13,205 nt of DNA from a virus (taxonomy: Duplodnaviria > Heunggongvirae > Uroviricota > Caudoviricetes): IMG/VR virus record IMGVR_UViG_2585427757_000002; one strand, 5' to 3'. Numbering within the stretch: the first letter of the stretch is position 1; the number at the start of each line of letters is the position of its first letter. The notes below the pieces were generated by a model, which was not told the origin of the DNA, searched no databases, and was given only the letters and a program-made list of their open reading frames with translations. The translations under genes and the position numbers were made by a program. Below, in pieces: positions 1 through 13,205 of the stretch.

Positions 1-551
1 CCACTGCCGGAGCCTTCATAAGCAATATCAATGGCCACGGATTCGGTCGGGTTAAACTGCACGCCAGCTCCCCACGCCAGAGACGTGTTGCTGTGGCGAC
101 CGTCATCACTTCCGGTCAGCACATCGTGCGTTTTCCCCTTGTTGTCAGTTACGCGGAGATAATCCCCGGAGAAAGTCGACACACGGCTGTAAGCCACACC
201 CGCCATCGCATACGCGCTGAACCATTCATTCACGCGCACAGACGGCCCCGCCATTACGCTGAACCAGCGGTTACGAACGGAATCTTCATGCCAGCGGGTA
301 TCGCTGTAATGGGTCAGCTGGCGATTCTTGTCTCCTGCATAGCTGAATGACGTCACCAGCCCCAGCGTATCCGTAAACTCATAACGGTATTTCACGTTAA
401 TCCCGTTCAGATCATCACTGCCGGGAACGTTGGTCCGGGCATGAAGATACCCCGCGCTCAGCGTGGACTGATGTTCAGACGCCCATGCAGGCGCACCGGA
501 TACGGCCAGACAAATGGCTGCGGACAAAATGGCGGCACAAACTTTACGCAT
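1..551 (-). CDS. lom: Outer membrane protein Lom (Ail/PagC/OmpX-family beta-barrel), prophage moron; N-terminal 183 codons, 3' end runs off the window start
   Basis: Reverse-strand ATG at 549-551 preceded by RBS GAGAGG. Translation MRKVCAAILSAAICLAVSGAPAWASEHQSTLSAGYLHARTNVPGSDDLNGINVKYRYEFTDTLGLV...AYEGSGSG has a signal peptide and matches lambda Lom as recalled. Position immediately downstream of J is as in lambda. Confidence 0.9.
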   Translation of the reverse strand, partial: MRKVCAAILSAAICLAVSGAPAWASEHQSTLSAGYLHARTNVPGSDDLNGINVKYRYEFTDTLGLVTSFSYAGDKNRQLTHYSDTRWHEDSVRNRWFSVMAGPSVRVNEWFSAYAMAGVAYSRVSTFSGDYLRVTDNKGKTHDVLTGSDDGRHSNTSLAWGAGVQFNPTESVAIDIAYEGSGS

Positions 552-573
552 AATTACCTCTCGCTTTTCTGCA

Positions 574-599
574 ATAAAAAAGGCGTCATTCCTGACGCC
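574..599 (-). terminator. Candidate intrinsic terminator between J and lom (GC stem ggcgtca/tgacgcc, loop ggaa, then TTTTTTAT on the minus strand)
   Basis: Plus strand reads aataaaaaaGGCGTCAttccTGACGCC; on the minus strand this is a 7-bp GC-rich hairpin followed by a T-run, 23 nt after the J stop and just before the lom RBS. Confidence 0.4.
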
Positions 600-621
600 A
601 TTTATTGGGGTTATAAATATT

Positions 622-3600
622 TCAACGAATACTGATGCCGGAAGCCGCTTTTTTGGTCACAATCACCGTACAGTCGGTGATATTGCCTGCCCCCTGATTG
701 CCTTTCTGGAAAATCTTAAACTCCAGAGTGACGCTACCACCACCACTAGGCATATCAATAACTGCACTGTAACTACCGGGAATGGCCCCTTTAGTTTCTC
801 TGGATGCGATTAATACGCCGTTTTTGCGAACTTCAAAACCATAACCCGTGTATCGCGTGCCTCCCGGGTTATTTCCGCTCCCCGGATCGTCATACGCTAT
901 ACCGTTAAAAATAATGGGCGGAATAATAATCTGGCGGTCAAAGTTATGATCATCGCTGATGGTGACTGTAACCGTACCGTTTGGTGTTTCCGTGTTACCC
1001 CACGTACCGACTTTTTTCGGGAAGGCTTTTGATACAGCTTTAACGAAATCTCCTCTGACCTGGGTCGCCTCCAGCATGCCCTTAATCGTACAGTTCTGGT
1101 TAATCGTGACATTGTTGAGCGTTCCTGAGTTCGCATTCACACTGCCACTGATATCCGCATTTTTAGCGGTCAGCTTTCCGTCTGATGTCAGGGAAAATAC
1201 CGGAGGACTGCCACCACTGGTAATGGTGGGGGCCGTCAGGCGCTTCAGGAACACGTCGTTCATGAATATCTGATTGCCCTGCGCCACAAACATCGGCGTT
1301 TCATTCCCGTTTGCCGGGTCAATAAATGCGATACGGTTAGCGGCAACCAGAAACTGACTCAGTTTGCCTTCCTCCGTGTCCTCCATGCTGAGGCCAATAC
1401 CCGCGACATAATGTTTGCCGTCTTTGGTCTGCTCAATTTTGACAGCCCACATGGCATTCCACTTATCGTTGGCGTCCTTCCACTCTTTCGAAAACTCCTC
1501 CAGTTTGCTGGCGTTATCTTCCGTCAGCTCAAAGTTTTCCAGCAGTTCCTTGCCGAGATGCGTTTTATTGATCAACCCTTTATAAAAATTCAGATAACCT
1601 TCCGCATCATCGCTCGCCCGACCAACGGCCTCCACAAATGCCGATTTACCAACGGTGTTCACGCTGCGGATATAAAAGTAATAATCATAACCCGGCTTAA
1701 TATTGCTACTGGCGGCTATCCAGTACAGCGCCGTACCAAGATAACGCGCGCTGGTTTCAACCTGCCTGATATCGATAATCCGCTTTTCCGAGAACCAGAA
1801 CTCAAACTGCACCGTCGGGTCATATACAGCCAGTTTCGGGACCGCTGTTATCTGAAAATACCCTGGTATCAGTTCAATAGTGACAGGCGCTGCCGGTGCC
1901 GCAATCCGGAACGATACCGATGCCGGATCGCCCTGCTGCCCCCACGCATTTACCGCCCGGACCGTCAGCGTGTAACGCCCCAGCGCCAGTTGCCTGAAGC
2001 GGTATGTGGTTTCCGTCGTCCGGGCCGTGCTGACCAGCCGCTCACTGCCGTCGTCCGCTGTTACGGTCAGACGGAGCAGGAAGCTCACGCCCTTCACCAC
2101 CTTCGGTGTGTCCCATCGCGCCAGCACCTGATATTCCCCGCTGTCTGCAGTGACTTCTGCGGCCAGGTGCTGCACCGCTGGCGGCGTGACACCATTCACC
2201 GTGCCACTCTGGTCGCCGTCAAAGTGCGCCCCGTTATCCACGATGGCTTCTTTTTCCGGTACATGCTGCACGGCGGTGATGGCATACGTGCCGTCGTCGT
2301 TCTCACGGATACTCACACAGCGGAACAGGCGCTGGCGCAACGTCGGCAACTTCAGCCCCCACACGCTGTATTCTGCAACGCCGTCAGGAACCCGGCTCAC
2401 TTTCACCTTCACGCCGTCGGTGACGGACTGGACCTGCACGCTGACCGGATTGCCACTTCCGTCAACCAGGCTTATCAGCGTGGTACCGGAGGATGGCAGA
2501 GTGATTTCACGGTCGAGCGTCAGCGTCCGGGTCTGGCTGTTTACCGCCAGCACGCGCCCGCCGATGCTGATACCGGCATAGTCATCATCGCAGATTTCAA
2601 TGACATCGCCCGGTACATGGCGAAGCCCTTCAGCACCCACGCTGAAATCCACGGTCTGCGTCTCCAGCAGTTCCGTTTTAATCAGCCACAGCCCGGCTCG
2701 GTGTGCCTGCCCCCGGCTGGTACAGCCAAAGGCATCCATCTTCGTGACATTACGACCGTAACGGGCAATGGCCTGCGTGTCCTCCACAAGCTCTGTTGCC
2801 GTTTCCCAGCCGTTATCCGGGTCAATCCAGTTCACCTCAACGGCATTATGGCGGTCCTTCAGGGCGCTGAAACTGTAGCGGAACGGCGCGCCATCATCCA
2901 GCATCACCACATTACTGCGGTTATAGGTCCACACCTTATCCGACGGCCGGTCCTGCACGAACGTCAGCGTCTGCCCGTTCCATACCGGCATACAGCGCAT
3001 CGCCGAGCAGAAATCACTGAGCACATCCCACGCCTTACGCTGTGTGGTCAGGTACGCATTACAGGTGATGCGCGGCTCCGTACCGCCAAAGCCGTCCGGC
3101 ACCGACTGGTCGCAGTACTGGCCGATGACATACAGCGCCCATTTATCCACATCTGCCGCACCAAGACGTTTCCCCATGCCGTAGCGCGGATGGGTCAGCA
3201 TATCCCACAGACACCAGGCCATGTTGTTGCTGTATGCCGGTTTAAACGTTCCGTCCCAGATACCGCTGTATTGTCGCGTCTGCGGGTTATAGTTCGACGG
3301 CACCTGCAGAATGCGCCCGCGCAGATGATAATTACGGCTCACCTGCTGGCTGCCGAACTGCTCCGAATCCACCTGCACGCCGACCAGTGCCGTGTTCGGG
3401 TAGCACTGTTTCACATCGATGATTTCGGTGTATGACGACCAGAGCGTTTTGTTCTGCAGCTGGTCTGTGGTGCTGTCCGGCGTCATCCTGCGCATCCGGA
3501 TATTAAACGGGCGCGGCGGCAGGTTACCCACCACCACCGAGGCCAGATACTGCGAGGTGGTTTTGCCTTTAATGGTGATGTCTTTTTCCGTCACCCAGCC

Positions 3601-4035
3601 ACCGTTACGCTGTATCTGAACCAGCAGGCGGACTTCCGATGGATTCCTGTCCCCCTTTGAGGTGGTTTCCACCAGTGCCTGCACACCGAAGGTAAAACGC
3701 AGACGGTCGATGTTTGCCGACGTGATGGTCCGGGTGATCGGCGTATCATATTTCACTTCCGTACCCAGCACCGTCTCGGAGCCGGAGGATTCAAACCCCT
3801 CCGGCGGTGACTGCTCCTGCTCACCGGCCCGGAACACCACCGTGACGCCGGATATATTGGTATTCCCCTCACTGTCCAGCACCGGCGTACTGTTCAGCAG
3901 CACGCTTTTTAATCCATCCACCGGACCTTCAACCGGCCCTTCGCTGATGGCATCGATCACACTCAGCAACTGCGTGGACTTCAGGTTGTCCTTCGCTTCG
4001 CGCGGGGTATGCCCCTTACTGCTGCCTTTACCCAT
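622..4035 (-). CDS. J: Tail tip attachment / host specificity protein J (central tail fiber), 1137 aa, with a C-terminal receptor-binding region that differs from lambda J
   Basis: 1137-aa ORF starting [34 protein letters not shown], near-identical to lambda J (1132 aa) over most of its length as recalled. RBS GGAGCGTGAGG upstream of the ATG at 4035. Lies between I and lom as in lambda. Confidence 0.95.
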
Positions 4036-6111: not shown

Positions 6112-6440
6112 CAGTTCACCACCTGTTCAAACTCTGCGCTGAACTCAACACGCAGCATACTGACCCGCGACGACCATTTTGCGCAGGTCACCTTTATCTG
6201 CCGCCACTCATAAGGCGGCGTCCACAGAAAGGCTTTCCAGCCCCCGTGCTCTTCCAGAAACGACTCCAGCGCCGTGGCCTCCCAACGGGGGACAGAAAGC
6301 GTCACGCTGTACGTTTTCAGGTTGGCATTCAGCCCGGCAGGCGCTCGCTGGGAATAGCCATCACCAAAGCGCACCTTTCTTACAGAAGGGGCCGAAGCCA
6401 CATCCATACCGGGTTTCACTTTCCAGCGGAAGGTTTTCAT
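6111..6440 (-). CDS. M: Tail tip protein M (109 aa)
   Basis: 109-aa ORF MKTFRWKVKPGMDVASAPSVRKVRFGDGYSQRAPAGLNANLKTYSVTLSVPRWEATALESFLEEHGGWKAFLWTPPYEW...; same length as lambda M. Start overlaps the H stop by 4 nt (ATGA) and the stop overlaps the L start. Confidence 0.93.
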   Translation of the reverse strand: MKTFRWKVKPGMDVASAPSVRKVRFGDGYSQRAPAGLNANLKTYSVTLSVPRWEATALESFLEEHGGWKAFLWTPPYEWRQIKVTCAKWSSRVSMLRVEFSAEFEQVVN

Positions 6441-9035
6441 CGTCCACCTCCGGAGAACAGACCACCATCGCGCATCTGTGCCTGGATTTCATCACGGGCA
6501 CCCTTGCGGGCCATGTCATACACCGCCTTCAGCGCCTGTGGCCCTATCTGACCATTCGTACCGTCGTTCTGAATCACCACATGGTTATTCTGCTCAAACG
6601 TCCCGGACGCCTGCGACCGGCTGTCAGCCAGACTGCCCGGTGTACCGACATAACCACCGGTGGCATAGCCGCGCATCAGCCGGTAGAGATTCCCCACGCC
6701 AATCCGGCTGGTTGCCTCCTTCGTGAAGACAAATTCACCACGGTGAACAATCCCCGCTGGCTCATATTTGCCGCCGGTTCCCGTAAATCCTCCGGTTGCA
6801 AAATGGAATTTCGCCGCAGCTGCCTGAATGGCTGTACCGCCTGACGCGGATGCGCCGCCACCAACAGCCCCGCCAATAGCGCTGCCGATACTCCCGACAA
6901 TCCCCACCATTGCCTGCTTAAGCAGAATTTCTGTCATCATGGACAGCACGGAACGGGTGAAGCTGCGCCAGTTCTGCTCACTGCCGGTCAGCATCGCCGC
7001 CATATTCTGTGCAATACCATCAAAGGTCTGCGTGGCTGCACTTTTAACCTGCGACATACTGTCCGTGGCGCTCTCTTCCCACTCACTCCAGCCGGACTTC
7101 AGGTCTGCCATCCAGCTCCCGCGAAGCTGGTCTTCAGCCGCCCAGGTCTTTTTCTGCTCTGACATGACGTTATTCAGCGCCAGCGGATTATCGCCATACT
7201 CCTCCTTCAGACGCTGTTCCGTGGCTTCCCGCGCTGCCTGCCGGTCAGTCAGCCCCCGGCTTTTCGCATCAATGGCGGCCCGTTTTGCCCGTTGCTGCTG
7301 TGCGAATTTATCCGCCTGCTGCGCCAGTTCGTTCAGCCGTTTCTGGTGTTCAACCTTATCGCCAAGTTCAGCCAGCTGACGTTTGTACTCCAGCGTCTCT
7401 TTTTCATGAGCAAGAAGAGATTTTTCCTCGATACTTAGCGATTTCTTCTGGCCATCCAGAACGTCAGCAGACAACTTCTCATGCAACACGGCATACTGAC
7501 TTTCGGCCTTCCACAAATCCCGGCGCTGCTGGCTGATTTTCTCATTCGCTCCGGCATGCTTCTCCAGCGTCCGGAGTTCTGCCTGAAGCGTCAGCAGGGC
7601 AGCATGAGCACTGTCTTCCTGACGATCGCCCGCAGACACCTTCACGCCGGACTGTTTCGGCTTTTTCAGCGTCGCTTCATAATCCTTTTTCGCCGCCGCC
7701 ATCAGCGTGTTGTAATCCGCCTGCAGGATTTTCCCGTCTTTCAGTGCCTTGTTCAGTTCTTCCTGACGGGCGGTATATTTCTCCAGCGGTGTCTGCAGCC
7801 GTTCGTAAGCCTTCTGCGCCTCTTCGGTATATTTCAGCCGTGATGCCTCAGATTCGGCCCAGTCCTTTGCTGCCATCTCTCTGGCCTTTTCAAGATCGGC
7901 CTGCAACATGGCGACTGAAAGCCCAAGTTGCGCATTCGCTCTGTCTTCCCAGTCCACGGAGATTGGCAAGAAATGCTGAGGTTTTACCGCGCCGGTGGCT
8001 CCGGCTCTCATACCACTGCCATTTCTTGTCCGCTTCATCAAAAGCCTTTTCAGCTTTGGCGAGCATATCAGCAGAGGAGTCCGGGCGACCAATATCCAGC
8101 ACCGCATCCCACATGGATTTGAATGCCCGCGCAGTCCTGTCTGCCCAGGTCTCCAGCGTGCCCATGTTCTCTTTCAGGCGGCGGGTCTGGTCATCAAACC
8201 CCTTCGTCGCGGCCTCGTTCGCCGCCTGCAATGCCCCGGCTTCATCGCCGGAACGCTGCAACTGAGCAACATACGCAATCTGCTCCGCCGTCACGTTATG
8301 GAACTGGCGTGCCATCGCTGTCAGCCCCGACGTCGGGTCTGTGGTCAGCTTCCCGAAGGCTTCAGCGACCTTGTCCACCTCCACACCGGATGCAGAGGAG
8401 AAACGCGCCACACTCTGGCTGATGGACGCAATCTGAGCCTCACCGCTTACTCCCGCCTTAACCAGTGCGCTGAGTGACTCGCTGGTCTGGTTAAACGTCA
8501 GCCCTGCCGCCTGCCCGGCTCTGGACAGGACCAGCATGCGATCTGCCGTCAGACCCGACTGATTGCCGGAAAGGACCAGCGTTTTGTTGAAATCGGACAG
8601 GGTTGAGTCCCCCTGATACCAGGCATACGCCAGCGCACCGGTCGCCACCGCCAGCGAGGTGGCCCCCACCATCGGCAGGGTGATCGCACCGGCAAGCCCC
8701 CTGAACATGGGGATCATCCCGCCGAAGGAGTCCTTCACCTGACCACCCTGTTGCAGCAGGATCAGCCACGGACTTTGCCCGCCTGCAAGCTGCGTGGCCA
8801 CGTCGGTGAACTGTGCAGGCAGCATACGCATGGCAGCTTTATACTGCCCGACGGAAATCCCCGCTTTCTGTGCAGCCAGTGCCTGTCGGCTCAGCGACTG
8901 TTCAACGACTGCCGCTGTTTTTTTCGCATCACTTTCCGTACCGGAAAAATGACGCCTGACTCTGGCCATCTGCTCGTCAAATCTGGCCGCATCCAGACTT
9001 AAATCAACGACCAGATCGCCTACCGGTTCAGCCAT
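6437..9035 (-). pseudogene. H: Tail length tape measure protein H, interrupted by an apparent +1 frameshift (N-terminal frame 7890..9035, C-terminal frame 6437..~8010)
   Basis: Two overlapping minus-strand ORFs (381 aa and 556 aa) together span ~866 codons, matching lambda H (853 aa). The N-terminal part begins MAEPVGDLVVDLSLDAARFDEQMARV; the C-terminal part ends ...MRDGGLFSGGGR with the Gly-rich hydrophobic tail of lambda H. The frame changes between the KKWQWY codons (~8010-8021) and the SVDWEDR codons (~7945-7960). RBS AGGAGGAG before the ATG at 9035. Confidence 0.85.
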
Positions 9036-12413: not shown

Positions 12414-12937
<524 letters not shown>

Positions 12938-12938
12938 G

Positions 12939-13205
<267 letters not shown>

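Follow-up and report, generated by a model that had tools for sequence, protein, structure and literature searches.

The receptor-binding tip of gene J in a lambdoid prophage of Escherichia coli and its relation to the h434 host-range allele

Host specificity is set by the C-terminus of the tip attachment protein gpJ, and lambda equipped with the J gene of phage 434 has its binding redirected to OmpC, the 434 receptor (PMC3509688; PMC11101478; PMC12502783). The DNA analysed here, referred to as the window, is a stretch of 13,205 bp that makes up one whole contig of a short-read draft assembly (JOQW01000061.1, GCA_000714295.1), and it encodes a J protein whose end departs from that of lambda. 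The questions raised by this locus are which type of receptor-binding domain the protein carries, how far the exchanged DNA extends, and to which outer-membrane receptor the tip would be directed.

The window is the late, tail-encoding part of a lambdoid prophage of E. coli. All its genes lie on the minus strand and follow one another as capsid gene E (partial), FI, an FII-like gene, Z, U, V, G, T, H, M, L, K, I, J, and lom. The position of J fits the lambda tail gene order ..H-M-L-K-I-J-lom, as judged from the Pfam calls of its neighbours, among them the lom and gpI domains, and from the annotation of a 96.3%-identical prophage.

Gene J and its C-terminal domain

Gene J and its 3' part are located as follows (window positions).

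622..4035, minus strand: gene J (tip attachment or host specificity protein), intact, 1137 amino acids; from the open reading frame list and its translation.
622..1116, minus strand: receptor-binding domain of 434 type (h434), J residues 974–1137 and the stop codon, the host-range determinant; assigned by amino acid and nucleotide identity and by PF12421.

The protein has the same length as phage 434 J. Six gpJ Pfam domains are present in canonical order, all above their cut-offs (PF24801, PF13550, PF24421, PF24489, PF09327, and PF12421), and form the lambda-type series of FNIII-A, Phage-tail_3 hub, two Ig-like domains, tail-tip fibre, and C-terminal receptor-binding domain. The C-terminal peptide of about 157 residues quoted in the preliminary description of this DNA is encoded exactly by the minus-strand frame, and the span given for it, 622–1100, corresponds to residues ~979–1137 plus the stop codon. 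Three other open reading frames, 514..813 (plus), 959..1273 (plus), and 897..1136 (minus), were considered and rejected as by-products of the J and lom frames; J and lom, conserved as proteins, account for the region.

The references used for alignment were lambda J (NC_001416) and phage 434 J (OL657226; UMO75286.1), to which the whole protein is 89 and 97% identical, respectively. Residues 1–973 are 96.0% identical to lambda J (934 of 973, zero gaps), in agreement with the earlier statement that J stays close to lambda for some 980 residues, and 97.0% identical to 434 J. Over residues 974–1137, only 64 of 170 alignment columns (37.6%) are identical to lambda, with 17 gap columns and five indels, and the C-terminus is far from identity with its lambda counterpart. 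At the DNA level, identity to lambda is 95.4% in window 1400–1117 and 48.7% in window 1116–622. This fall takes place within about 10 codons and therefore does not represent chance drift. The break lies at residue ~974 (window ~1116), slightly upstream of position 1100, at which the region had initially been taken to begin; the swap itself had been recognized correctly.

The end of J had also been described as not matching lambda. The low identity and the five indels bear out a marked difference, but the wording is too strong, as the two domains are homologous. The receptor-binding domain matches PF12421 (Ig_GpJ_C) with 93.4 bits, compared to a cut-off of 26.2, over profile positions 1–134 of 135, and it matches solved lambda J chains from end to end (8xcj, E 2.1e-24; 8iyk, E 1.7e-23). 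The top-scoring solved structure is gpJ of A8 (9wca, E 2e-33, 44% identity). A non-homologous replacement of the lambda C-terminus was rejected on these grounds, the two domains belonging to the same Pfam domain and being alignable over their whole length. An AlphaFold2 single-sequence model of the 164-residue domain had a mean pLDDT of 45.2, too low for a fold search; presumably the domain adopts the trimeric Ig-like fold known from lambda, as family membership suggests.

Relative to lambda J, the domain has insertions after lambda residues 1011 (+2), 1043 (+6), 1078 (+1), and 1099 (+2), and lambda residues 1109–1114 are deleted. All five indels coincide with, or lie within a few residues of, the natural indel hot spots 1012, 1048–49, 1077–78, and 1107 that define J lineages (PMC6646904); their positions are given here in relation to these published hot spots and not to the named loops L1–L4.

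The domain is near-identical to that of phage 434 J: 160 of 164 residues are shared (97.6%, zero gaps), and the nucleotide identity is 98.6%. The four differences are N1019D, I1108V, Q1110H, and G1115R (window residue, position, 434 residue). Near-identity and the same indel pattern relative to lambda, by which a 434-type J allele is recognized, are thus both found, whereas the close identity to lambda J 974–1132, loop lengths included, that would mark a lambda-type LamB-binding domain is lacking.

Similar domains are carried by a number of other phages. A megablast of window 622–1100 against phage genomes returned 74 records. Several Stx2-converting phages (including Stx2a_WGPS6 and Stx2 phages of O157), mEp460_ev081, and ASU11 are 99.4% identical over these nucleotides, and phage 434 and the laboratory hybrid lambda h434 imm21 are 98.3–98.5% identical (the hybrid 98.3%). 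As protein, all 164 residues of the domain are shared with J of phages ASU11 and Stx2a_WGPS6 (100%). Across phage J records, identities to the domain are bimodal, with 74 records at 90% or above, none between 60 and 90%, and 169 below 60%, a distribution that fits discrete receptor types. Several discrete types of receptor-binding domain exist, and by sequence the J tip of the window is of the classical 434 type (h434).

The two forms differ widely in prevalence. DNA of the 434-type domain occurs in 2113 of 5426 complete E. coli genomes, and 508 records are at least 99% identical in nucleotides, 100% matches included. DNA of the lambda-type domain occurs in 98 of the same 5426 genomes, and the five records listed for it are laboratory or DE3 strains. 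To differ from lambda at this site is therefore the norm in E. coli.

Extent of the exchanged block

The features adjoining the receptor-binding domain on either side are the following (window positions).

1..551, minus strand: lom (Ail/Lom outer-membrane beta-barrel) of 434 type, its 3' end truncated by the contig end; PF06316, 371 bits, profile positions 1–183 of 199.
582..599, minus strand: terminator-like hairpin GGCGTCA-GGAA-TGACGCC followed by TTTTTTATT, just 3' of the J stop codon; from a consensus scan.
1117..1505, minus strand: J residues ~845–973 (Phage_Tail_Tip match 845–972), a 434-identical tract leading into the receptor-binding domain; from alignments.
1486..1893, minus strand: second mosaic patch, J residues 715–850 (second Ig-like domain and start of Phage_Tail_Tip), neither lambda-like nor 434-like.

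The block diverged from lambda reaches from window ~1116 to ~37, past the J stop codon and the terminator-like hairpin and through almost the whole of lom. The phage 434 record has an annotated terminator at the position equivalent to that of the hairpin. In window 550–60, the nucleotide identity of lom is 95.9% with phage 434 and 49.3% with lambda, and it climbs to 89% with lambda only in window 37–1, at the lom 3' end. The sharp drop at ~1116 and the recovery only at the end of lom are in keeping with the mosaic module exchange put forward in the preliminary description, and Maddamsetti et al. (2018, PMC6646904) concluded that J residues 960–1132 circulate independently as an evolutionary module.

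Judged by these identities, J tip and lom appear to form a single cassette of ~1.1 kb between conserved flanks, namely upstream J on one side and the lom 3' end on the other. Conserved flanks around the J-tip/lom block are the pattern expected from homologous recombination between lambdoid phages. The allele probably entered J by this route, the receptor-binding domain and lom travelling together.

Upstream of the break, the similarity to phage 434 is even closer. Window 1400–1117 is identical to 434 at 284 of 284 nucleotides, and base-for-base identity begins at about window 1505 and is continuous to the receptor-binding domain. Over residues 851–973 the protein agrees fully with 434 (100%) and to 96.7% with lambda, and the identity between window and 434 extends over J residues 851–1018.

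The second patch, residues 715–850, is of a different kind. It is 86.0% identical in amino acids to lambda and 86.8% to 434, whereas lambda and 434 are 97.1% identical to each other here. Its closest sequenced phage record has 87.0% nucleotide identity over window 1486–1893; the same DNA is present at 100% in eight listed complete E. coli genomes, including JJ1886, and at 99% or above in 174 records.

Three of these observations extend the preliminary description: the identification of the tip with the classical h434 allele, its being the common form in E. coli, and the inclusion of lom in the swapped block.

Predicted receptor, prophage state, and alternative readings

In lambda, the receptor-binding domain is Ig-like, and four bottom loops (L1–L4) enter the extracellular mouth of trimeric LamB (PMC11101478). 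Binding to LamB spreads the three domains, and the change travels up the fibre and opens the tail tip (PMC11101478).

Beyond the identities, domain membership, block boundaries, and prevalence given above, which are observed directly, we infer a receptor and an opening mechanism for the window protein. The 3' ~495 nt of J encode the 434 allele of the gpJ receptor-binding domain, carried on an otherwise lambda/434-like J body. As suggested by the near-identity to 434 J, a trimeric fibre tipped with three copies of the domain would dock onto OmpC, itself a trimeric porin, and not onto LamB. By analogy with the lambda-LamB structures, the distal loops would insert into the porin mouth and spread the three domains, and this movement would be relayed up the fibre, so that the tail tip opens for DNA ejection. 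Taken as a whole, an h434 allele in a lambda/434-like J, docking on OmpC by a trimer-on-trimer mechanism, is very probably the correct account. The earlier proposal that a receptor other than that of lambda is used gains support from the 97.6% identity to J of 434, a reported OmpC binder. The literature contained, as far as found, neither a receptor assay for the exact window allele nor receptor data for ASU11, Stx2a_WGPS6, mEp460_ev081, and the O157 Stx2 phages; the search on the mEp460 receptor returned unrelated OmpC papers only.

The feature is already known: it is the well-known h434 host-range allele in a well-described system of modular exchange. Lambda geneticists have worked with the h434 allele for decades, and there is an explicit published account of modular exchange of the J specificity region (PMC6646904). 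It carries little weight as a discovery, and the practical points are that the predicted receptor is OmpC rather than LamB and that the LamB-type tip is the rare form.

A different matter is whether this J is still in use. The prophage is probably defective. Of the major capsid gene E, only the last 148 codons (the C-terminal part) are left, as a remnant at 12414–12860 on the minus strand (PF03864, profile positions 191–328); the gene is interrupted by IS621 (IS110-like) at window ~12860–12880, and the contig runs into the end of the element. Window 12850–13205 is 100% identical to the capsid/IS621 junction in several complete E. coli genomes, in which both capsid halves are annotated as pseudogenes. 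In addition, the tape-measure gene H is split into two open reading frames, 7890..9035 and 6437..8107 (minus), by the loss of 2 bp near window 7953. Across the stretch with this deletion, the best E. coli matches (99.0%) have 303 bases where the query has 301, and in a relative aligned in full, H is intact and the two bases are present. An exact-match scan of representative genomes for the H frameshift junction found none. The deletion may be a genuine frameshift or may have arisen as an error when the short reads were assembled into the draft.

Both lesions, in the capsid gene and in H, favour the view that J is here a relic, the domain no longer mediating infection by the defective prophage and persisting as recombination stock for lambdoid phages. 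Against it, J is a full-length open frame with the length of 434 J, the H deletion could be a draft-assembly error, and the remainder of the prophage lies outside the window. On balance we lean slightly towards the relic view, which concerns the present use of J and not the identity of its domain.

Some further peculiarities were noted in H and in a related prophage. Window positions 7001–7500 and 8001–8500 in H are only 84 and 91% identical to the S6aCHROMc prophage, which is otherwise ~96–99% identical, and relative to that prophage the window has a 21-bp insertion in H near 7471. The divergent stretches and the insertion point to further mosaicism or to repeat-length variation. In the complete genome NZ_CP031134.1, IS621 disrupts the capsid gene in the same way, and the related prophage there has a split portal gene as well (21349–31734). 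The insert of ~10 kb, an element outside the window, carries genes for an integrase, a RepA-family helicase, and a terminase small subunit, together with major capsid and head decoration proteins of its own, and it resembles a phage satellite or island that has inserted into the portal gene.

With the domain taken as the h434 allele directed to OmpC, its fine specificity may still differ from that of 434. The four substitutions align at lambda residues 1017 and 1099–1104, within a few residues of hot spots 1012 and 1107, and therefore the preference for particular OmpC alleles, or even the receptor range, could differ. In a stronger form, the 434-like domain would have been retuned by these substitutions to a subset of OmpC variants, or to another porin, e.g., OmpF, in addition to OmpC or in its place. 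Gain of OmpF use in lambda is governed by residues 1012 and 1107, the sites that evolve fastest among natural J homologues (PMC6646904). In phage 21 J, one mutation adds OmpC and further J mutations add OmpF (PMC11336670), and two natural OmpC-directed gpJ variants accept different OmpC alleles (PMC11338833). The domain is, however, 97.6% identical to 434 without a single indel, and the same allele is widespread, with 100% protein identity in ASU11 and Stx2a_WGPS6 and at least 99% nucleotide identity in the 508 E. coli records. It clusters tightly with 434, a point in favour of a common receptor class, and such retuning is considered unlikely. The same low expectation applies to the wider proposal that the substitutions represent an arms-race variant for particular OmpC alleles or a second porin, with the J-tip/lom cassette acting as an exchange unit for host range and virulence and defective prophages as its reservoir.

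Finally, the full-length J might be a chimeric consensus, produced by short-read assembly of co-resident lambdoid prophages, and not one real gene. The draft contig terminates in repeated sequence on both sides, IS621 on one and the conserved lom 3' end on the other, there are a median of three J-like places per E. coli genome, and the whole J reaches at most 97.6% identity in complete E. coli genomes, though each of its segments has 100% matches there. Such a chimera is nevertheless improbable, as exactly the same 1137-residue protein is found on a 6.2-kb contig of a second assembly (GCA_000700445.1), mosaicism is an established property of J genes in nature (PMC6646904), and the 434-identical tract is unbroken from window ~1505 through the receptor-binding domain. 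The J mosaic is regarded as real, and with the tract unbroken from ~1505 the finding at the J tip is therefore independent of any joints upstream.

Comparison with known systems

Phage 434 J, the source of the h434 allele, is like the window protein in length and in its receptor-binding domain, and is likewise followed by a terminator and a 434-type lom. OmpC is the documented receptor of phage 434 in the literature. Phage 434 J differs from the window in lacking the diverged patch at residues 715–850 (86.8% identity) and at the four domain residues. The J proteins of ASU11 and Stx2a_WGPS6 have a domain identical to that of the window, and mEp460_ev081 and the O157 Stx2 phages share 99.4% of the DNA.

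The lambda J domain (8XCJ/8XCK, 8IYK) is of the same PF12421 family, sits on a J protein that is otherwise 96% identical, and presumably has the same trigger mechanism. It differs from the window domain in binding LamB, in its low identity, and in the five indels at or near the specificity hot spots.

A8 gpJ (9WCA/9WCB), a natural variant used in engineered lambda particles, is of the same family, and delivery through OmpC has been shown for it experimentally (PMC11338833). At 44% identity to the window domain it represents a different sequence type. Phi330 gpJ is another diverged OmpC-recognizing type, with 35–40% identity to 434 and lambda (PMC12502783). A8 is directed to OmpC in spite of its low identity, and recognition of OmpC therefore arose in, or is common to, several diverged gpJ types.
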